A DNA stretch of 26,026 nucleotides from a virus (Duplodnaviria; Caudoviricetes), in IMG/VR virus record IMGVR_UViG_3300011334_000314, positions 1 to 26,026 of that record; one strand, 5' to 3'. A program made the position numbers and the translations under genes. Below, piece by piece: positions 3,654 through 26,026 of this stretch (position 1 is the stretch's first letter; every line of letters begins with the position of its first letter). The notes beneath the pieces are model-generated. The model did not search any database. It was not told where the DNA came from and saw nothing but the letters and a program-made list of their open reading frames with translations.

Positions 3654-3684
3654 TCTAACTTTTATTTGTTCGTTGAAATTACAG

Positions 3685-3713
3685 CACAGAGGGACGCGTT
3701 GCCCCTCTATGTG
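3685..3713 (-). terminator. Stem-loop downstream of the tail tube gene
   Basis: cacagaggg...ccctctatgtg inverted repeat; weak U-tract. Confidence 0.5.
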
Positions 3714-4258: not shown

Positions 4259-4302
4259 GCACAAAAGAGGAGCGGTGTTTAAGCCGCTACCTCTATTCGT
4301 GC
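4259..4302 (-). terminator. Intrinsic terminator / long stem-loop after the major capsid gene
   Basis: Minus strand agagg-tagcgg-cttaaaca-ccgct-cctct followed by tttgt. Confidence 0.65.
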
Positions 4303-4322: not shown

Positions 4323-5225
4323 TTATGCAGTATATTGGTAGAATGCGATTTCGTCACCGAAGCCGTATTGTACACCTGCGAAGAATGAACAAGCGAAACG
4401 AACGTTGTCAGACAAATCTTTGTCGTACATATCCAATACCGCTACGCTATTCCATTGGTCAAGTAAGTTAGTACCGAACCAAAGGTTGCTCTTTTGGAAC
4501 ATAGCCATTGTGTCGTCGGACATACCAGGACACTCGATAATATCGTACTGACCCTGCCAAGTCATTTTAACTGTTTCACCTTGGTACAAGTAGCTTCCAC
4601 CACCAAGACCTAAGATAGCAGTTCTGAACGCTTCAGCAACGTTAGAAGATACTGCGATAACAGGCTTTTCAGTAGCACGACGAACGCGTGTTGGTAAAGT
4701 CAATACTAAACGAGCCATTTCTTCGATTACGTTAGCAGAAGTAATAGCTTCTGGAGTAGCAACGTCAAGAACAGCAGCGTCAGCTAAGAACAAAGTCTCA
4801 AAACCTGCGTACTCACCTGCTGTTGCGTTGACACCCTGCCACATAACAACCTCGTTGTTAGCAGCGATACCCGCCATAACGTTAGCAATGATTGCGTCAG
4901 TCAAAGAAGCGTGAAGGTTTCCGTCTTGCTCAGATTTAGCTTCCCAGTCTGATAAGAAATCTTTCTTACAAAGTTGACGGTGAACTTGGAATTTTTCCAA
5001 AGTCAAGATGCGCTCAGTTAAAGTAACTGTTCCTGTTGGAGTAAAGTCACAAGTCGCGTTTGCGAAAGTGATGTTGTCAACTAAGCGACGAACAACTTGT
5101 TTGTACTCGATGTTTTCTTTGAAGGTAACCGCAGCCAAAGACTCGTTACTCAAGAACGCAGCGCGGATATATCCTGCTGCTTCACGACCTGCAAAGGTTG
5201 TGGTTAATGAAGTGGTAGTAGCCAT
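4323..5225 (-). CDS. Major capsid protein (HK97 fold)
   Basis: 300 aa after protease and scaffold; CDFTPTGTVTLTERIL, LCKKDF..DW, WQG, SNLWFGT and GVQYG motifs; biased codon usage. Confidence 0.88.
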   Translation of the reverse strand: MATTTSLTTTFAGREAAGYIRAAFLSNESLAAVTFKENIEYKQVVRRLVDNITFANATCDFTPTGTVTLTERILTLEKFQVHRQLCKKDFLSDWEAKSEQDGNLHASLTDAIIANVMAGIAANNEVVMWQGVNATAGEYAGFETLFLADAAVLDVATPEAITSANVIEEMARLVLTLPTRVRRATEKPVIAVSSNVAEAFRTAILGLGGGSYLYQGETVKMTWQGQYDIIECPGMSDDTMAMFQKSNLWFGTNLLDQWNSVAVLDMYDKDLSDNVRFACSFFAGVQYGFGDEIAFYQYTA

Positions 5226-5244: not shown

Positions 5245-5814
5245 TTATTTGTTTAAATGAAATACGAAGCGTTCTTCTGCCGACATTTTAGCGTATGGCT
5301 TAGAAGGTGCGCTTTGTTTGTTTTGTTTAACTTCTTTGATTGATTGAACCGCAGGTTGTGCGCTCAACTTCTCAACGTTAGATGAAAGTTCTGCGTTTGC
5401 CTTTTTCATTTCAGCAAGTTCGCTTTCAAGTTTAGCAACCAAAGACAAAAGACCTTCAACTTCTGCGTTGAAAGAATCTGCAACTACTTCCGTAGCTTGT
5501 TCTTCTTCAATTACAACTTCAACCTCTGGAGCTTCTTCTTCCATTGGTCTTAATTCGGTTACAACACCGTCAGCAACAACAACTGTAACTGCTTCTGCTG
5601 TCTTGTACTCTCCGTCCATAACAACAACCTCGTTGCCGTCTACGTCCTTAGTGAATACACGAACACCAACTGCCCACGCGTCGCTATCTGAATAGATGCT
5701 TGTACCGTCCTCTAAGATCGCTTCAACCATTTGCTTCACCTCAACTACTTCTTCAGCAGAAAGGGAAACATTGTGCTTTGCGAAAAGAGCGTTTACTTTT
5801 TCTCGTAAGTTCAT
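5245..5814 (-). CDS. Capsid scaffolding protein (probable start MNLREK at 5814)
   Basis: Acidic, with LEDGT and DGEY motifs and a coiled-coil C-half; between protease and capsid; the longer 5871 start runs through a promoter-like region. Confidence 0.72.
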   Translation of the reverse strand: MNLREKVNALFAKHNVSLSAEEVVEVKQMVEAILEDGTSIYSDSDAWAVGVRVFTKDVDGNEVVVMDGEYKTAEAVTVVVADGVVTELRPMEEEAPEVEVVIEEEQATEVVADSFNAEVEGLLSLVAKLESELAEMKKANAELSSNVEKLSAQPAVQSIKEVKQNKQSAPSKPYAKMSAEERFVFHLNK

Positions 5815-5857
5815 AATGTGTTTAATTAATAATTTAGTACCTAAATAGAAAAGAGCG

Positions 5858-5865
5858 TATATTTG
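5858..5865 (+). promoter_or_regulatory. Bacteroidota -7 promoter element (TATATTTG), antisense to the late operon
   Basis: TATATTTG at 5858-5865, about 50 nt upstream of a plus-strand terminator; -33 element imperfect. Confidence 0.55.
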
Positions 5866-5869
5866 TTTC

Positions 5870-5942
5870 ATAATTGATTCTTTTCATAGTTTCTTTTTGA
5901 TTTTAAGGTTTGAACGGGGGAGTAGTTACCCCCGTTTTTTTT
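5870..5942 (+). ncRNA. Candidate ~70-nt small RNA with a U-rich single-stranded seed and terminator
   Basis: Bounded by the -7 element (5858-5865) and a plus-oriented intrinsic terminator (5913-5942); no ORF. Confidence 0.5.
5913..5942 (+). terminator. Intrinsic terminator on the plus strand
   Basis: aacggggg-agtagtta-cccccgtt followed by a T run only in the plus orientation. Confidence 0.75.
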
Positions 5943-6117
5943 ACCCTAAAGTTTCAAGAATAGTATTCAGAACTTTCATTTCGTCCTCATTCAATCCGTA
6001 CGTCTTGAACCCCATTGCGCCCTGCTCTTTTGTTATTTTAGTAAGCGCTAAAAGAAACAGGTTTGCGTCGTCGTTGAACAATTCGACTTTGAGAAACCCA
6101 CCTGCTTCGATGTTCAT
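5941..6117 (-). CDS. Hypothetical protein (58 aa, MNIEAGGFLKVELFNDDANLFLLAL...ILETLG), not in ORF track
   Basis: Manual translation; ATG abuts the protease stop; the plus-strand 5897..6121 ORF is its shadow. Confidence 0.75.
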   Translation of the reverse strand: MNIEAGGFLKVELFNDDANLFLLALTKITKEQGAMGFKTYGLNEDEMKVLNTILETLG

Positions 6118-6719: not shown

Positions 6720-8603
6720 TTAACCGCCTAAGCGAGATTGATTTTGAATGAGTTGTTGTGCTTCTAAATTGCTTGACACTTGACCGCTTACAACGTATGC
6801 TTGAAGTGGTGGTTGTTGGTTAGGTTGAATACCCAAGTAGGCAAAGTTAGACGCGGCAGGTGCTGTCATTCCTCCACCTGTTGAACCGCTACCTATACCA
6901 CTACTACCTGTTGAACCGCCTGTACTTGCACTACCGCCACTCATAAATTTTCCTATTGTAGCTCCTGCTATTGTAGCAATTCCTGCTGCAGCACGAAGTT
7001 TAGCTGCCGTACTTGCTGTTGTTGCAAGTGTCGCACCACCGTCGGGAGAAAGTTTCCACGTTGGGTTAGCCCAATAACCTGCAATTTCTCGTTGAGTGTC
7101 TACAACTATTTGTCCTATTGCTAACGCTTTTTGTAGTACAAAAGCAACATCTGCGGCTTTTCTATTTCTTTGAAAAATAGTGCCAAGTAAATCTATTGAA
7201 GCATTTGCTAAATTCCAACGCGCTTCATATAGTTGAGTGTCCGCTGCAATAACTGCATTTTTATATTCTTCAGTAAATAGCAATCTTGTCTTATGCCCTT
7301 GCATAGAAATTTCGGTTAACTTGTCTTGCTTTATTTTTTCTTCATCTACAAGTTTTAAATTCCAAGAAACTTCCATATCGTAAACCTCTCCAAGTTCTTC
7401 ACGCTTGGCAGCAACTTTTACATTTTTCTTTTCATCTTCTAATTTTGCTAAATCTTGAACCGTTGTTTCAGTAGCAATAGCAAGTTTTGCATTTCTTAAA
7501 ATTTGTTCTTCAGCTAATAAATCATTAAGTTCTTTTTGAAGTTGTTTTTGTCTATCACTTTGAACTAAAACTTTTTTAGTTTCAATATCTTTTTGAACAA
7601 AGTTTGCTCTTTCTGTCGTGTATTGTTGCTCCGACATAATTAAGTTTTCTTTGTCAAGATTAGCTTTTATCAATCGTTGCTTTTCAGCAATAACGGATAA
7701 TTGCTGCGCTCTTGCATCTTCAAATTTTGCAATGGCTGCTCTTCTTGTTTGGTCTTCTTTATAACCTTCAATTGTTAAATTTTTCGCTTCTTCAATAAGT
7801 TTAACACGATCCGCTTCACCCTTTGCAGTTATACCGCTTAAAAGATTACGCATTTCGATTAACTTGTTTTCCTTTTCACGAATAGTATTAATATCTCCAG
7901 TTGTTCGAGCAATGGCTAACTCATTCTCTGCAACTTGTATATTATTTTGCGCTTTTTCTTTTTCAAGTTCAAGGGTTCTAAAACTTTCTCCATTTAAAGT
8001 TTTTTCTCTGGCTATACGAGCATCTAAAATTTGATTTTGTTGTTCAAGTGCTACATTTGCTTCACCTAACTTTTCTACTTTTTCTGCCGTTCCACTTAAA
8101 GCAGCATTAATCTTATCGAAGTTTAAAACAAGTAAAGCAACTGCACCACCAAGAGCGAGTAATGGATTACCAACAATAGCACCTGCAAGATTTCCTAAAC
8201 CTTTAATTAAACCACCTACTTCATCTTTTAATGTATTAAAATCTATTCGAGAAACAGCGTTACCCATTGCAGATAAAGACTGCCCTGCTCCTTTCAAGTC
8301 CAAGTCCATTAAGCGCGAACCGAACAAAGAAACGTTATTTGAAAGACCCTCAAACGCGTTACCTGCGTTAGCATTAATTTCAGCACTTAAATCTCCGATG
8401 TTATCCTTTAACTCGGCAGCACGAGCGGACGCTTTCTTAAACTCTTCACTTGAAGAATCCATTTGTAACAACTGCTGTTGTAACGCGCGGAGTTCAGCCT
8501 TTGCGCTCTTAAATCCTGTTGCCGTATTTTCGGCTGCCGTAGCGGTTTCGCCAAGTACACGCGTCGCGTTTGTGCCTACATTAAAATCTATCGTGTTTGC
8601 CAT
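6720..8603 (-). CDS. Tail tape measure protein
   Basis: 627 aa, Ala/Leu/Glu/Lys-rich coiled coil with a hydrophobic segment; C-terminal QAYVVSGQVSSNLEA motif. Confidence 0.8.
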   Translation of the reverse strand: MANTIDFNVGTNATRVLGETATAAENTATGFKSAKAELRALQQQLLQMDSSSEEFKKASARAAELKDNIGDLSAEINANAGNAFEGLSNNVSLFGSRLMDLDLKGAGQSLSAMGNAVSRIDFNTLKDEVGGLIKGLGNLAGAIVGNPLLALGGAVALLVLNFDKINAALSGTAEKVEKLGEANVALEQQNQILDARIAREKTLNGESFRTLELEKEKAQNNIQVAENELAIARTTGDINTIREKENKLIEMRNLLSGITAKGEADRVKLIEEAKNLTIEGYKEDQTRRAAIAKFEDARAQQLSVIAEKQRLIKANLDKENLIMSEQQYTTERANFVQKDIETKKVLVQSDRQKQLQKELNDLLAEEQILRNAKLAIATETTVQDLAKLEDEKKNVKVAAKREELGEVYDMEVSWNLKLVDEEKIKQDKLTEISMQGHKTRLLFTEEYKNAVIAADTQLYEARWNLANASIDLLGTIFQRNRKAADVAFVLQKALAIGQIVVDTQREIAGYWANPTWKLSPDGGATLATTASTAAKLRAAAGIATIAGATIGKFMSGGSASTGGSTGSSGIGSGSTGGGMTAPAASNFAYLGIQPNQQPPLQAYVVSGQVSSNLEAQQLIQNQSRLGG

Positions 8604-16642: not shown

Positions 16643-16733
16643 GTACCCTTTCGGGTGCTTTTCTTTTCAGTTGGGTACAATTTGTAACCGAGTGGGTATA
16701 ATTTATGTCGCAAGTATTGTCAACTTTTGCGAC
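16643..16733. repeat. Three consecutive intergenic inverted repeats
   Basis: gtaccc-tttc-gggtgc (16643-16658), imperfect hairpin 16668-16694, gtcgcaa...ttgcgac (16707-16733). Confidence 0.6.
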
Positions 16734-16746
16734 CGAAAAACTTGAC

Positions 16747-16992
16747 TTATACTATTAAATCTTCAACGTTTATTTGATGCTCTTGGAGTAGCTCGCGAAT
16801 GTATTCGAATACTTCCTCAATCCCTTGTTGATATGCGCCTTCCTGTCGTTCGTTGTACTTGGTGAACTTGCGGTATCCGTTCATCTGCAACTCCCAAAGC
16901 ATAAGCGCCATATCACGCGCCTTTGTGATTCTATTGAACTCGTAACGATCGTCGCCGTCGCTTAAGTCAAAGGTCAATGTTGCTTTGCTCAC
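16747..16992 (-). CDS. Conserved phage hypothetical protein
   Basis: 81 aa; KATLTFDL..D N-terminus common in small phage proteins; 4-nt overlap with the terS stop. Confidence 0.75.
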   Translation of the reverse strand: MSKATLTFDLSDGDDRYEFNRITKARDMALMLWELQMNGYRKFTKYNERQEGAYQQGIEEVFEYIRELLQEHQINVEDLIV

Positions 16993-17348
16993 AATTTATC
17001 GTTGATTATTATTTGAATAGGTTCGCTGTTTGCGCCTGTAAGTTCGGTCATTTGTTTCGGATTACCAAACGCGCGGCTCAATAAAGTTTCGAGAGAATAC
17101 AACGAACCTTTCTTCAACGAGGTCATCATTGCGTTTGCTATTGTCTTTTCGAGTATCGTTGCTTTCGGATTATCCCAGACGCTTTTCAGTTCGTCTAAGT
17201 CCATTGCCATCATCGCTTGTATGGTGTCGTTTATTTCGCTCAACTTGTAGCCGCTTTCCTTCAACAACGAAACGTATTTCTTCGGGCGTCCGTTGGGGTT
17301 GGCGTTGTTTCCTTTTGGAAAGGGTTTAAGGTTTTGTATGTTTGCCAT
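16989..17348 (-). CDS. terS: Terminase small subunit
   Basis: NLKPF.KG...NPNGRPK N-terminus; LLSRAFG.PKQ..ELTGAN.EPI C-terminus; follows the ParB-methyltransferase. Confidence 0.75.
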   Translation of the reverse strand: MANIQNLKPFPKGNNANPNGRPKKYVSLLKESGYKLSEINDTIQAMMAMDLDELKSVWDNPKATILEKTIANAMMTSLKKGSLYSLETLLSRAFGNPKQMTELTGANSEPIQIIINDKL

Positions 17349-18975: not shown

Positions 18976-19419
18976 TTACTCATTGTTGAAATCAACATTG
19001 ACATCTGACATCGATTCAAGAAACGTCTTGATGTCTTTCTTCACACAAGCGCCACACGTCGAACGCTCGTTATAAGCGCCCGTTGCTTTGTCTTTGAAGG
19101 TGTAGAACTTGCTTAAGTCAATAGCGTCAATCCTGCCCTTCTTTTGCGCGTCAAGAAGAAAGCGTTTGAACTCTATCTGTTCTTCAAGTGAAAGAACACC
19201 GTTCCATTTAGATGCAGGACAAGAAGCGAAAGCGAGTTTAGCTTTGACTGGCATAACGCAACCGCATAACTTAATCGACTTGCGTTTGAACTTTACTTCG
19301 ATTTCTTCTTCTGCTCCGACAATTAGCGGTCCACACGACTGCGTTGATGCTTCGAAGAATTTACACGTTCGGCATATATCCAAACGTCGTTTGTACTCAT
19401 TGTGTTTTACGAATAACAT
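18976..19419 (-). CDS. Cys-rich metal-binding protein (DUF6171-like N-terminus; probable start MLFVKH at 19419)
   Basis: RLDICRTC, CG, CGCVM..K.KL....CP..KW and C-terminal TCGACV. Confidence 0.7.
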   Translation of the reverse strand: MLFVKHNEYKRRLDICRTCKFFEASTQSCGPLIVGAEEEIEVKFKRKSIKLCGCVMPVKAKLAFASCPASKWNGVLSLEEQIEFKRFLLDAQKKGRIDAIDLSKFYTFKDKATGAYNERSTCGACVKKDIKTFLESMSDVNVDFNNE

Positions 19420-19900
19420 TTGCTCTAATTTTTTGTTTAATTGAATCAATGGTGCGGTATAAGAACGGCATCGGTATTCCTGTTTCTTTCGATAGTGCAC
19501 GATAGGTAAAATCTTCAAGAATGTACTCTTGAAAGATAAGACGTTCAAACTCACTCAGTCGGCTTATAAGAATGTCCAGTTGCTCGTTTGTCATTCGTGC
19601 GCCTAACCACGTCTTATCGACTTCATGCGCGTAGTCTTTGAAGTCGCGTCGGTTTCTGTTCCAGGCGATAGTTTGTTTATAAAACGGCGACGTTGGACTG
19701 TTAACCGACAAATACATTACGCGAATAAGATAAAATTCAAAGTCGCCTGTATCTATTAAGTTTTCGATATGCTTTGAACCAAACATAGAAAGTAAAGAGT
19801 CGTGCAAGAGATCCTCGTAGAATGGTTCTTTACGAGCGATGTTGTACGCAAGTTCTTTAAACTTTTTGTAGTGTCCCTCTATGTAATGTTCAAGTGTCAA
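19397..19900 (-). CDS. ECF-like RNA polymerase sigma factor (probable late transcription factor)
   Basis: EDLLHDSLL (region 2) and LSEFERLIF...TYRALSKETGIP...LYRTI...KQKIR (region 4 HTH). Confidence 0.8.
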   Translation of the reverse strand: MTLEHYIEGHYKKFKELAYNIARKEPFYEDLLHDSLLSMFGSKHIENLIDTGDFEFYLIRVMYLSVNSPTSPFYKQTIAWNRNRRDFKDYAHEVDKTWLGARMTNEQLDILISRLSEFERLIFQEYILEDFTYRALSKETGIPMPFLYRTIDSIKQKIRANVIRKTQ

Positions 19901-20698: not shown

Positions 20699-20712
20699 AA
20701 CAATAAAATCAA

Positions 20713-20943
20713 ATGAACAATGAAAAATCAAATTTTTACAAATCACTTTTTCTCTTTGAAGACGAAGTACAAATTCTTGTTAACGGAATCATTACCGCAC
20801 AAAATTACTACGGTGAGCAAAAGAATGGCACAAGTAGCAGGGATACGTTTTGCAACGCCCGAATCGAAGAACTTGAACGAGTATTCCTCAAACTTAATAC
20901 GTCGCATTGGAAAGAACTACCAGAGCCAACAAAAGAAAAGTAA
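20713..20943 (+). CDS. Hypothetical protein
   Basis: 76 aa, A-rich leader; overlapped by a second open frame 20720..21079. Confidence 0.65.
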   Translation: MNNEKSNFYKSLFLFEDEVQILVNGIITAQNYYGEQKNGTSSRDTFCNARIEELERVFLKLNTSHWKELPEPTKEK

Positions 20944-21039: not shown

Positions 21040-21069
21040 TTGGAACGACAACTTAATCGAGTATATTTG
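21040..21069 (+). promoter_or_regulatory. Second canonical Bacteroidota early promoter
   Basis: TTG (21040-21042), 19-nt spacer, TATATTTG (21062-21069). Confidence 0.8.
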
Positions 21070-21094
21070 TAACCACTAAAAATCAAAATAAACT

Positions 21095-21385
21095 ATGTAC
21101 TGTCCAAAAATCACTTATTGCTTTTCAGCAAATGACCTCAAAGAATTAAACAAACAAATTAAAGTTCTTGCCGTTAACTACGAAGAAACAGAAGGCGGTT
21201 GGTTCAACGTAGTTGAAGGAGATAATGTAACCTTTACAGACGAAGCAGGAAAGATTTTTGTCTTATCTATTTGCGGTCAGTTCTTTCGTCGTGGCGAAGG
21301 CGAATACGACCTCGAACACGTTATGTTAATAGCAGACGGAATAACCCTACACTTTGAAGTTAGACTATTCGACGACCAATTGTAA
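21095..21385 (+). CDS. Hypothetical protein
   Basis: 96 aa acidic ORF after the promoter; stop overlaps the next start. Confidence 0.75.
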   Translation: MYCPKITYCFSANDLKELNKQIKVLAVNYEETEGGWFNVVEGDNVTFTDEAGKIFVLSICGQFFRRGEGEYDLEHVMLIADGITLHFEVRLFDDQL

Positions 21386-22182: not shown

Positions 22183-22196
22183 ATGAATAAGATGTT

Positions 22197-22233
22197 ATAA
22201 AAGGCGGTTATTTCATACATAATCGTCTTTTAT
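22197..22233 (+). terminator. Long stem-loop after the SSB-like gene
   Basis: ataaaaggcggttat / ataatcgtcttttat, 15-bp stem with G-U pairs. Confidence 0.55.
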
Positions 22234-22260
22234 TACACTTAACGAATTAAATCTAAAACA

Positions 22261-22554
22261 ATGAAGAAACTAATTTCACTTGAAAGACGCATTGAGAATC
22301 TACTCAAGAAATACAAGACGCTCCGCAATAACAACAAAGCACTTTGTGTTCGCGTTTGGGAACAACAGTTCGACGAAAGAAAAGACATCACAAGCAACTT
22401 CTTCGCGATGTACGAAAGCGGAAAGTACGTCAGCGCTGACAACATCACACGAATCGCACGACTTGTTAAGGAACGCAATCCAGAACTACGCGGAACGAAC
22501 CACGACGACAACAAGAAGAAAGCGCAGTTAATTAAACCACTATTAAAGAAATGA
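22261..22554 (+). CDS. Hypothetical basic protein, possibly DNA-binding
   Basis: 97 aa; I..LL.KY..LR.N, ITRIARLV.E.NPELRG pattern; ATGA coupling. Confidence 0.75.
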   Translation: MKKLISLERRIENLLKKYKTLRNNNKALCVRVWEQQFDERKDITSNFFAMYESGKYVSADNITRIARLVKERNPELRGTNHDDNKKKAQLIKPLLKK

Positions 22555-23055: not shown

Positions 23056-23581
23056 CGAACAGATAAGACAGCAAATAGTAGATATGATACCTTTTGCACA
23101 TATGGAACGCTTTGAAACACTTTGGTCTATGGTAATACCAAAATACGAGCGTTTATCAAGCGAACAAATAAAGATGCAACAAGAACTGGAAAACGAACGT
23201 GAAACGTTTTGGAGCGCGTTAGAAGACGTTGTATGTAGCGTAATGGGTATTCAATCGCAAACGCTATACACACCAACAAGACGACGCGAGATAGTGACAG
23301 CGAGACAAATGATTTTCTTTTTGATCCGTCCGTGTTACTTCCAGTCTTTTGATTCTATCGGTAAACACTATGGCAAAGACCACGCTACGGTAATGCACGG
23401 AATAAAGCAAGTTACTTGGCAAATTGAATGCGACAAAAGCTATCGTACAACAGTTGAAAGAATATGTGATTTAATGGACGGTATGGGTTATGCTAAACCT
23501 ATTAAATTTTTCACTAAGTTTGTCGAACACTTGGAGCATCAAAAAGAACTTGAAGCGAAAAGAAAAGCAAGAATCAAATAA
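23048..23581 (+). CDS. DnaA C-terminal (domain IV) HTH protein
   Basis: TRRREIVTARQ, S...IGKHYGKDHATVMHG, the Bac_DnaA_C signature; no AAA+ domain. Confidence 0.88.
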   Translation: MTNEQIRQQIVDMIPFAHMERFETLWSMVIPKYERLSSEQIKMQQELENERETFWSALEDVVCSVMGIQSQTLYTPTRRREIVTARQMIFFLIRPCYFQSFDSIGKHYGKDHATVMHGIKQVTWQIECDKSYRTTVERICDLMDGMGYAKPIKFFTKFVEHLEHQKELEAKRKARIK

Positions 23582-23600
23582 ACCTTAAAACCTTAAAATT

Positions 23601-23789
23601 ATGTGCGACTACTGCCGTTACTGCGATGTTGAAGCAATCGAAGAACGAATTGCCGATATTAAACACAATAGCATTGTTTACGAGAACTGGGACAACTCAG
23701 ACGTTCAAGAACTATTCGAAGATGAAATAGGTCTTTGTTACGACTGCCAAAAAGAAGAAGACGCGGATATGGAAAGGGACGAATACTAA
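23601..23789 (+). CDS. Small acidic Zn-binding protein
   Basis: CDYCRYC N-terminus and CYDC; 62 aa. Confidence 0.7.
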   Translation: MCDYCRYCDVEAIEERIADIKHNSIVYENWDNSDVQELFEDEIGLCYDCQKEEDADMERDEY

Positions 23790-24031: not shown

Positions 24032-24450
24032 TACTACAACTAAAAAAGAGAATCGAAATTCTCGAAGCAAAGGTTCAAGAACAGGAACAAAAGATAAACG
24101 ACATTTTAAATAAGTTGTCCGAAAAGGCAACAAGTCCTTCTCTTGTTCCTGCAAAGAAACAAGCGTTCAAAAAACCAACTGTTGTTGAGATATACGACTA
24201 CGCTTGTGAGCGATTGAGCAACGACGACGCGATTAAATTTACCGAGAAATTCCACGCGCACTACGAAGCCAACGGTTGGAAGGTAGGACGCAACGCGATG
24301 AAAGACTGGAAGGCGGCTGTTAGAAAGTGGGACTTAACTACCTTTGACACATCAAAAACAAACCAACAAACTAAAATCAAAAATGGAAAATTCGATTCCG
24401 ATGCTGCGCAACGCATCTACAACGACGCTCACAACTACACAAAGGATTGA
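24025..24450 (+). CDS. Replication initiator C-terminal-domain protein with N-terminal coiled coil
   Basis: FKKPT..EI, F..HYEANGWKVGRN.MKDWKAAVR.W motif of phage replisome organisers. Confidence 0.75.
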   Translation: MLILQLKKRIEILEAKVQEQEQKINDILNKLSEKATSPSLVPAKKQAFKKPTVVEIYDYACERLSNDDAIKFTEKFHAHYEANGWKVGRNAMKDWKAAVRKWDLTTFDTSKTNQQTKIKNGKFDSDAAQRIYNDAHNYTKD

Positions 24451-25138
24451 CAAAGCCGAACGCGAGAGCGCGTTTGTTGCCGACTACGACTTACCAACGT
24501 TCGTTAAACTTTGCTCGAAGGTTTGCGCTATGTATGGCATAGCACTTCCAGAGGCGCAACTGTTGCAAATGTTGCACGAGTTCATTGTCAAACACTTTCG
24601 GTGGGTTACATTCGAACACTTCAATCTTGCGTTTGAAATGAACGCGGCAAACGAACTGTCAAAGAAATGCGAACACTTCGGTGCTTTGAGCGTGTCTTTT
24701 ATAGGCGACGTGTTGACTTGCTACAAACCACACCGCGACAAAGCAAACCTACAAATTCAGAGAGAAATAGCGGAAGCAATAGAGGAAAAATCACAACAAA
24801 TAAAAGAGAACGAAATGGCGGTAAACGATGACAGTTGGAGAAGAATGCTTCAAGAAGACGTTGAGAGCTTCAAACAAAGCAAATACACGACGTTAGAACT
24901 ACGAGGGGTGTCAATGATGCGTTGGCTTGAAGAAAGTAAAAGGATAACCGCTGAAACGTTCACAGACGACGAATACAAACTTTGTAAAGCGAAGGCGAGA
25001 AAGACTGTTTTTAACGAACAACAACTTTCGAAAGGAATGGTTGAGCGAATGAGCGACCGCAAACGTCAACTCGTAAAGGAATCTATCCAGTTCGAAGGGT
25101 TGCGCGAATTGTATAAACTTTATTTGAGTAAGCAATAA
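24383..25138 (+). CDS. Putative helicase loader / replication protein (probable start MENSIP at 24383)
   Basis: Overlaps the initiator-domain gene as in O/P-type pairs; F.LAFEM, S..FIGDVL..Y motifs. Confidence 0.5.
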   Translation: MENSIPMLRNASTTTLTTTQRIDKAERESAFVADYDLPTFVKLCSKVCAMYGIALPEAQLLQMLHEFIVKHFRWVTFEHFNLAFEMNAANELSKKCEHFGALSVSFIGDVLTCYKPHRDKANLQIQREIAEAIEEKSQQIKENEMAVNDDSWRRMLQEDVESFKQSKYTTLELRGVSMMRWLEESKRITAETFTDDEYKLCKAKARKTVFNEQQLSKGMVERMSDRKRQLVKESIQFEGLRELYKLYLSKQ

Positions 25139-26026
25139 TGCAACCTTACAAACCAACATACCTGCCGCGTCAAGTTGAAGCGTTGAACTTTCTGAACACC
25201 GATAGTATCGTTGAACAGTTGTTATACGGTGGCGCGGCAGGGGGTGGCAAGACGAAGTTCGGTTGTATGTGGCAGATACAACGTCGTTTGAAGTACGCTG
25301 GAACACGTTCTTTAATTGGACGAAGCAAATTAGACACGCTTAAAAAGACTACGTTAAACACCTTCTTTGAAACGGCTGAGGAGTTTGGATTGATAGCGAA
25401 TAAACATTATACTTTCAACGGTCAATCCAACGTGATTAAGTTCTTCAACGGAAGTGAAATAGTGCTAAAAGATTTGTTTGCTTACCCCTCAGATGTAAAT
25501 TTTAACAGCCTCGGGTCGCTCGAAATTACTGATTATTTTATAGACGAATGTTCCGAAGTAACCGAAAAGGCGGTCAGCATTGTTCACTCGCGCTGTCGTT
25601 TTAAGTTGAACGAATACGGTCTTATTCCGAAAGGTTTCTTGTCGTGTAACCCTGCGAAGGGTTGGCTTTATAATGAGTTCTACATTAAGAACAACAGGAA
25701 CGAATTACCTTCACACAGAGCATTTGTCCAAGCGTTACCGCAAGACAACCCCTTCCTTCCTGTTGCTTATATTGAATCGTTGCGAAGACTTCCAGAGTAC
25801 GACCGCAAAAGACTTTTAGAAGGCAATTGGGAGTTCGACGACGACAGCGACAAGTTGTTCTCAACGGACAACTTACTCCGTATGTTCCGCAACGAACTGA
25901 TTGAAGGAAAGAAATATATCACAGCCGACATAGCGCGGTTTGGAAAGGACAGGACGATTATTTGCGTTTGGAATGGGTTAACACTTATTGAACTAATTGA
26001 ACTCAATCGTGCAGCGTTGGACGAAG
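25138..26026 (+). CDS. terL: Terminase large subunit (3' end beyond window; not in ORF track)
   Basis: Manual translation MQPYKPTYLPRQ..; Walker A YGGAAGGGKT, Walker B YFIDE, coupling motif SCNP, DNPFL, RLLEGNW, nuclease motif TADIARFGKD. Confidence 0.95.
   Translation, partial: MQPYKPTYLPRQVEALNFLNTDSIVEQLLYGGAAGGGKTKFGCMWQIQRRLKYAGTRSLIGRSKLDTLKKTTLNTFFETAEEFGLIANKHYTFNGQSNVIKFFNGSEIVLKDLFAYPSDVNFNSLGSLEITDYFIDECSEVTEKAVSIVHSRCRFKLNEYGLIPKGFLSCNPAKGWLYNEFYIKNNRNELPSHRAFVQALPQDNPFLPVAYIESLRRLPEYDRKRLLEGNWEFDDDSDKLFSTDNLLRMFRNELIEGKKYITADIARFGKDRTIICVWNGLTLIELIELNRAALDE

Follow-up and report, generated by a model that had tools for sequence, protein, structure and literature searches.

A conserved promoter-to-terminator unit at a phage head-gene junction: a candidate FopS-like RNA complementary to early-gene starts and overlapping a likely late promoter

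The locus

The window, by which is meant the whole stretch of 26,026 nucleotides that was analysed (IMG/VR record IMGVR_UViG_3300011334_000314, positions 1 to 26,026), is a linear virus record that is about 84% complete. It encodes a portal protein, a protease (Peptidase_S78_2), an endolysin, a terminase and an ECF-like sigma factor, and its promoters and leaders are of the Bacteroidota type. The capsid-like protein has its closest cultured match in the Nonlabens phages P12024S/L, which at 29% identity are too distant for a comparison of the unit described here. A search of bacterial genome contigs returned no relative of this protein, and hence no prophage relative, and none of the 14 near-complete genomes matched the tyrosine integrase family (PF00589). 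The genes and features that concern us first are the following.

4323-5225, minus strand: capsid-like gene, labelled from gene order, with no named family match
5245..5814, minus strand: scaffold-like gene (MNLREK...), labelled from its position between the protease gene and the capsid-like gene, with no named family match
5941..6117, minus strand: 58-aa ORF, whose TAA overlaps the terminator U-tract
19397..19900, minus strand: phage ECF-like sigma factor (profile and PDB matches), presumed reader of the late promoter
5833..5836, plus strand: TTTA as -33 element of the host-sigma promoter, 21 nt upstream of the -7 element
5858..5865, plus strand: -7 element TATATTTG, a Bacteroidota primary-sigma promoter element TAnnTTTG
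5871..5942, plus strand: predicted non-coding RNA of about 70 nt, with a predicted +1 at about 5870-5872
5881..5890, plus strand: box 1, UUUUCAUAGU, complementary to AUGAAAA starts and resembling the FopS 5' seed
5896..5911, plus strand: box 2, UUUGAUUUU followed by AAGGUUU, complementary to AAAAUCAAA / AAACCUUAAAA leader boxes
5912..5942, plus strand: intrinsic terminator with stem 5912-5920/5929-5937, an 8-nt loop and T8 at 5935-5942

The sigma factor matches phrog_1740 (E 5e-8) and the PDB entry for RpoE (E 7e-4), and TIGR02937 is found in 7/7 aligned members at scores below its cut-off. Genes are called early when they are on the strand opposite to the capsid-like gene; this is an inferred label, and the large terminase (25138-26026, plus strand) is also on the early strand. 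The DUF5681 protein at 16989-17348, which we take to resemble a small terminase, is on the opposite (minus) strand.

The initial annotation described a plus-strand -7 element, a U-rich stretch and a strong terminator at 5858-5942, and all three are indeed present. The Bacteroidota promoter consensus is given in PMC2483708 as -33 TTTG / -7 TAnnTTTG. Between the -7 element and the GC stem there are 41 U-rich bases, and folding predicts that the 5' part of the RNA is mostly unpaired (mean unpaired probability 0.73). TAnnTTTG by itself is common in the window, with 19 sites on the plus strand and 14 on the minus strand. The full promoter-to-terminator unit occurs once, and it was found in 2 of 200 dinucleotide-shuffled windows.

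Two further claims about the architecture stood in part. Both of the CAU triplets that were thought to face start codons exist (CAT at 5869-5871 and 5885-5887), but only the second is in the RNA body, because the first, which is part of the conserved minus-strand motif ATG(A/T/C)AACAAA, is located no later than the predicted +1. The unit had been placed inside a minus-strand operon; it does lie between the 58-aa ORF and the scaffold-like gene, but it also overlaps a likely internal late promoter.

A type I toxin-antitoxin system or another small coding gene was rejected, as the frame of the 17-codon ORF starting at 5887 is not conserved among 65 regions. Fifteen RNA runs contain no more than small shares of the stretch; the four examined consist of contigs that carry neither strand nor ends, and a depth bump at 5874-5914 in run X5 was not counted.

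Conservation of the unit

A search with the capsid protein found 80 related loci. The intergenic region is complete in 64 of them, and the 16 that end too early were dropped. The initial annotation had proposed looking for the same unit upstream of scaffold genes in related phages, and it is kept in 64/64 covering loci. With the window included, TAnnTTTG is present in 65/65 regions, with only the first n varying. The -33 element reads TTTA in 41, TTTG in 31 and TTTC in 1 of 73 distinct variants, a set partly selected by motif search, and TTTA or TTTG stands at the 21-nt spacing in 72/73 of them.

The terminator has changed while keeping its form. In 16 distinct hairpins all seven core pairs are Watson-Crick, and compensatory changes are found at 4 of the 7. 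The claim that it works on the plus strand only is supported by the same alignment, in which 18 basal cells are G·U on the plus strand and none on the minus strand, and by the window itself, where the minus strand reads TTCAAACC after the stem and has no U-run. In the single-stranded part, TTTGATTTT is present in 53/53 aligned units, so that the UUUGAUUUU box is invariant, and the TTTTCAT of box 1 is present in 47/53. For comparison, the flanking genes are invariant at only 25 of 113 comparable two-fold sites. These observations support, in silico, the suggestion that the plus-strand promoter-seed-terminator unit is under selection.

Further away, the pattern is looser. In a clade of about 80% capsid identity (three loci), the -7 element reads TACATTTG, TATATTTG or TAGTTTTG, the other n varying too, and it is followed by a U-rich stretch and a terminator as in the window; the full TTTGATTTT box is absent from these three loci. 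In distant phages it is the late strand that has a promoter, a U-rich stretch and a terminator ahead of the scaffold gene, and inspection by eye found a -7-like element in 10/13 units and TTTA(A)GGT in 11/13. No such unit was seen in the 270 nt compared in L202, L206, L213, L220, L229, L231 and L292.

Complementarity to early-gene start regions

The seed (5871-5911) was paired with the start regions of the window and the duplexes were compared with those of 300 shuffles. The candidate targets are as follows.

20704..20732, plus strand: start region of the early gene at 20713/20720; -20.9 kcal/mol, p 0.003-0.01
21079..21097, plus strand: leader of a 96-aa early gene (start 21095); -18.4 kcal/mol, 0/300 shuffles as good
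23580..23603, plus strand: leader of a 62-aa early gene (start 23601); -17.0 kcal/mol, p 0.01
24372..24385, plus strand: leader of a 251-aa early gene (start 24383); 12-nt exact match

The four leader matches noticed initially are all present: TAAAATCAAAAA at 24372, the last A of which is the A of the ATG at 24383, TAAAATCAAA at 20704, AAACCTTAAAA at 23580 and 23588, and the 21095 leader. In the comparison with shuffles, which had been suggested as a check, three early start regions (20713/20720, 21095 and 23601) reach p<=0.01 and account for the four best duplexes in the window when 20713/20720 is counted once; the pairing at the 24383 leader is not significant (-14.9 kcal/mol, p 0.09). The mean pairing energy is -14.0 kcal/mol for the 14 plus-strand starts versus -9.8 kcal/mol for the 24 minus-strand starts (MWU p 0.005), and the worst-pairing starts include those of the capsid gene, the portal gene and the long gene at 8603. 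The best pairing window genome-wide, -24.5 kcal/mol at 23526, is inside a coding sequence, and the late gene 12676 has an 11-nt match to the seed. A possible action in cis on the scaffold/capsid leader, which had also been raised, found no support at the annotated scaffold start (5814), where the pairing is -8.9 kcal/mol with p 0.60.

The distribution of the complementary box follows the same division. AAAATCAAA occurs seven times in the window: at five early start regions, in the unit itself, and at 8038 (minus strand) in a long late ORF. It is found in 18/18 orthologue leaders of the 21095 gene, and the box is present in the orthologue leaders of the 24383 gene (18/18), the 20713/20720 gene (4/18) and the 23601 gene (8/17). 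Among 18 close genomes AAAATCAAA occurs in 55/299 early-strand versus 2/531 late-strand leaders, and among five distant genomes in 2/96 and 0/119, respectively; these counts come from a simple gene caller that mis-called some starts, and the 18 genomes are related, not independent. Counted by gene family, the box is found in 9/50 early versus 2/48 late families, which is borderline (Fisher p 0.051). The early z is below the late z in 18/18 genomes, with a per-genome MWU p >0.05 in 8/18.

Exchanging seeds between genomes defines the scale of this match. Seeds of close genomes give a z of -1.16 with their own early leaders, -1.17 with those of other close genomes and about -0.50 with distant ones. 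As there is no own-genome advantage among the six close genomes, the seed match is clade-wide, not gene-specific; no fine covariation of seed and target was found among these genomes, and the variable linker of the unit tracks no leader. Seeds of the distant clade give a z of -0.10 with distant early leaders, and the distant units show no preference for their own early leaders.

The initial annotation had cautioned that low-complexity matches arise easily by chance, and this concern is real. The two-box pattern gave 62 hits in bacterial genomes, 45 of them in Bacteroidota by record title (counted by eye), and on the other strand an ORF is opened in 50/62, so that the pattern marks ordinary bacterial gene starts. 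The seed is the complement of a generic strong Bacteroidota start, which fits the TAAAA ribosome-site consensus reported in PMC2483708 and the A-rich starts lacking Shine-Dalgarno sites reported in PMC7797042. Host targets are therefore allowed, and the claim of specific selection is weakened. Of the proposed trans-acting blocker of early mRNAs there remains the better pairing with early-strand than with late-strand starts, in the window and in 18/18 genomes, but no specific target emerged.

Two other features were noted among the early genes. A host-type -7 element at 21062-21069 (plus strand), in the last codons of the 20720 gene and 25 nt before the 21095 start, reads TATATTTG or TACATTTG in all 18 genomes. 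At 20713 and 20720 (plus strand) there is a tandem ATGAACAATG in two frames, which is kept before the early gene in the relatives compared.

The overlapping late promoter

Phages of this kind have a motif ahead of the scaffold gene, for which the loci were tested here. The feature in the window is the following.

5842..5871, minus strand: likely late promoter of the scaffold and capsid genes, ATGAAACAAA (5871-5862), 13 nt, CTATTTA (5848-5842)

Aligned by eye, the motif reads ATG(A/T/C)AACAAA, about 12-13 nt, CTA(T/C)(T/A)(T/A)A. It is seen in the window, in the clade of about 80% capsid identity, in L256 and in a clade of about 46% (44-81% capsid identity overall), and cannot be made out by eye in several other loci. 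With a strict pattern, just 4/39 scaffold-upstream regions gave a match, so the motif rests on the by-eye alignment; in the window this pattern matched one other site, inside the portal gene, and revealed no second late promoter. Given the phage ECF-like sigma factor, the minus-strand motif is a likely late promoter.

The late motif shares CAAA with the plus-strand -7 element, and the two promoters, placed back to back, overlap. In the distant clade variable bases follow the late motif, and the motif thus does not explain why the TA of the -7 element is invariant. The triplet at 5869-5871, when read on the minus strand, is ACG or GTG in 22 of 43 distinct variants.

In the clade of about 46% capsid identity an opposite-strand TAnnTT(A/C)G is located 10-13 nt further out, before a small ribbon-helix-helix (RHH) gene, which is NikA-like/RHH_1 in the one member scanned. 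The two clades have in common an opposite-strand host promoter, which is followed by a protein gene in one of them and by a non-coding unit in the other. Two points are new with respect to the initial annotation: the plus-strand promoter overlaps the likely phage-sigma late promoter, to which one of the 'CAU' triplets belongs, and the distant clade has an RHH gene. This gene (L339:1353-1484, in G028, and loci L252-L286) is on the opposite strand, has its host-type promoter next to the late-promoter motif, and converges with the promoter/U-rich unit on a two-way terminator.

Relation to known RNAs

FopS RNAs, as described in PMC11697453, are driven by sigmaABfr, are 65-70 nt long, consist of a single-stranded 5' part and a terminator, and block start regions. 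The same source reports SusC mRNAs as targets, binding by RbpB, and one copy in a Caudovirales phage, which may bear on the novelty of the present unit. No Rfam family matches the window at the gathering threshold. An alignment to the FopS model (RF04319) covers model positions 1-71, has both boxes in the right order and scores 21 bits versus a gathering threshold of 56; 0/36 records exceed the cut-off, and the best relative reaches 31.9 bits. A second weak match of the model, at 22193-22270 (minus strand), is the reverse complement of the leader of the 22261 gene. Since a plain gene leader read backwards also scores, weak scores with this model are unspecific. Several relatives have a hairpin at 22193-22270.

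The unit resembles FopS in having a primary-sigma promoter, which at the sequence level is of the sigmaABfr type (TAnnTTTG in 65/65 regions, -33 element at 21 nt), a predicted length of about 65-70 nt, a U-rich single-stranded 5' part and an intrinsic, Rho-independent terminator. The blocks UUUUCAU and GAUUU(U)AAGGUU stand in the same order in both, and both are complementary to start regions. When the seed is compared with R1/R1', the UUUUCAU core, present in 47/53 units, aligns and the flanks differ. Unlike FopS, which is multicopy in Bacteroidaceae genomes, the unit is single in the window, and the genome is a virus record; its linker is longer, its hairpin is different and its score is below the cut-off. 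It also differs in its position, a head-gene junction of a phage where it overlaps a likely phage-sigma promoter, and in its predicted targets, which are phage early genes instead of SusC mRNAs. Judged by sequence, the unit is FopS-like in architecture and is not a FopS member.

GibS of B. thetaiotaomicron, as presented in PMC7366714, shares with the predicted RNA an extended single-stranded AU-rich seed that pairs with start regions lacking Shine-Dalgarno sites; it differs in being 145 nt long, in its PM2 promoter, in its two seeds and in being chromosomal. Measured against the mode of action of GibS and FopS, the seed has complementarity to start regions beyond that of shuffles, at the level of gene families borderline (p 0.051), and among the six close genomes seed and targets do not covary.

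The RNAs aQ of lambda, sas of P22 and STnc6030 of BTP1, covered in PMC12197685, are likewise opposite-strand transcripts within a phage gene cluster, the transcript being a predicted one here. According to the same source, they pair fully with one overlapping mRNA, belong to temperate enterobacterial phages and, in the case of STnc6030, tie such an RNA to superinfection exclusion. In contrast, the start codon overlapped in the present locus is not conserved in frame, and a tyrosine integrase was found in 0/14 near-complete genomes.

In bacterial chromosomes, a script found a promoter-like element in 3 and a terminator in 1 of the 62 hits, and both together in none. L349, from a Porphyromonadaceae MAG, shows by eye TAATTTTG, both seed boxes, a GC hairpin and no open frame, and is a possible chromosomal relative. 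A literature search that covered few subscription papers found no tested FopS-like sRNA from a Bacteroidota phage, and the available text of a 2025 review of phage sRNAs (PMC12197685) does not contain 'Bacteroid' or 'Flavobacter'.

Possible function of the unit

The promoter elements, the polarity of the terminator, the invariant box and the concentration of its complement in early-gene leaders are all observed. The unit is a real, conserved element, which most likely specifies a FopS-like anti-start RNA interlocked with the late promoter. By combining the available information, it is possible to describe how it might work. Transcription of the unit by the host primary sigma factor would begin as soon as infection starts, and the RNA of about 70 nt is predicted to be stable and could accumulate. 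Its targets in trans would be the AAAAUCAAA...AUG start regions common to several phage early genes, where base-pairing would block the loading of ribosomes and thus act as a brake on early-gene translation. As the box is common to the whole clade, the brake would extend to a co-infecting relative, and probably to host mRNAs with the same generic leader. Since the plus-strand promoter overlaps the likely phage-sigma late promoter, the two forms of the polymerase would exclude each other, and synthesis of the RNA would stop as late transcription starts. With no tyrosine integrase in 14/14 genomes, its role would be the pacing of infection or the exclusion of relatives, not prophage immunity. 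We give this sequence-based model, with a FopS-like RNA that acts in trans on early-gene starts, about an even chance of being correct.

A bolder version has an evolutionary component. The integrase-less clade would have replaced a protein repressor, the RHH protein of its sister clade, with a FopS-like RNA interlocked with the late promoter, obtaining an RNA-timed early-to-late switch and the exclusion of co-infecting relatives, with structural genes avoiding the box. We regard this version as doubtful. If the RNA is real, one short seed would regulate a whole temporal gene class via a shared leader box, and this regulation would be tied to the late switch through the promoter overlap. It would bear on the control of translation in Bacteroidota phages, which do without Shine-Dalgarno sites.

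The main alternative is that the minus-strand sequence itself is functional, as a true upstream in-frame start of the scaffold gene that adds 19-24 residues and is used on read-through mRNA. The plus-strand RNA and an outer stem would hide this start on the read-through mRNA, and the mRNA from the internal late promoter, starting downstream, would escape. An in-frame upstream ATG is indeed found in 62/65 regions (in the window, the ATG at 5871 would add 19 residues), and where the triplet at 5871 is ACG or GTG such an ATG is in frame in 31/34. In-frame stops are absent from all 73 distinct 57-nt stretches (rough p 0.04), and in bacteria the two-box pattern mostly marks a real gene start, opening an ORF in 50/62 hits. 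In the outer stem, ACC(U)UAAA on the late strand is the partner of the last bases of the 58-aa ORF (region z -3.9), and its TTAG/CCTA versus TTGG/CCAA forms co-occur in 57/60 variants; however, the frame and outer-stem patterns may represent only one or two inherited events. The amino acids of the extension vary freely, yet no synonymous change is seen in its K, Q, Y, Y and K codons, which is the pattern of a DNA motif. Furthermore, 31 of the 65 regions have the first ATG (5887) in frame, 28 have it out of frame and 6 lack it; in another group it is ATA, and the motif of the distant clade mostly reads ATG-TAA. We consider a regulated upstream start rather unlikely.

It is also conceivable that the RNA is directed at the host, where it would repress mRNAs whose start is the generic AAACC..AAAAUCAAA..AUGAAAA, such as those of exported or outer-membrane proteins, as FopS does with SusC, or titrate an RbpB-like protein; the match to early leaders would then be a by-product. 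The targets and RbpB binding of FopS (PMC11697453) provide a precedent. The two-box pattern fits as well, with 45/62 bacterial hits in Bacteroidota (by eye) and 50/62 opening an ORF, and distant phages keep TTTA(A)GGT (11/13 units by eye) with no preference for their own early leaders. Against this, the box is concentrated in the early leaders of the clade and nearly absent from late and distant-clade leaders, and a purely host-directed RNA seems quite unlikely.

The least probable possibility, to which we give little weight, is that there is no functional RNA. A late promoter, a terminator that faces antisense and a leader, either generic or left over, would then simply be neighbours, for instance after a small gene like the RHH gene of the distant clade had been lost, and any short RNA would arise incidentally from competition between the promoters. 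In favour of this, TAnnTTTG is found at 33 sites and has CAAA in common with the late motif, the minus operon contains another plus-strand terminator-like hairpin at 16643, the second FopS-model match (22193-22270) is only a reversed gene leader, and several distant loci have no such unit. Against it, the invariant 9-nt box is outside both promoters, the -33 element is kept at a fixed spacing, and the combination of promoter, U-rich stretch and terminator is seen again ahead of the scaffold gene of distant phages, where it is on the other strand.

The hairpin at 16643-16658 (plus strand) has no TAnnTTTG before it and is not kept at that place in the 14 relatives compared. A second candidate non-coding unit lies at 18938-18860 (minus strand), with TATATTTG, about 70 nt of nested inverted repeats and a U-run; in a comparison of four genomes, G002 and G012 keep it with compensatory-looking changes, and G007 differs. 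Minus-strand hairpins at 4271-4288, after the capsid-like gene, and at about 3675-3700, after a 168-aa gene, possibly attenuate or stabilise late mRNA.
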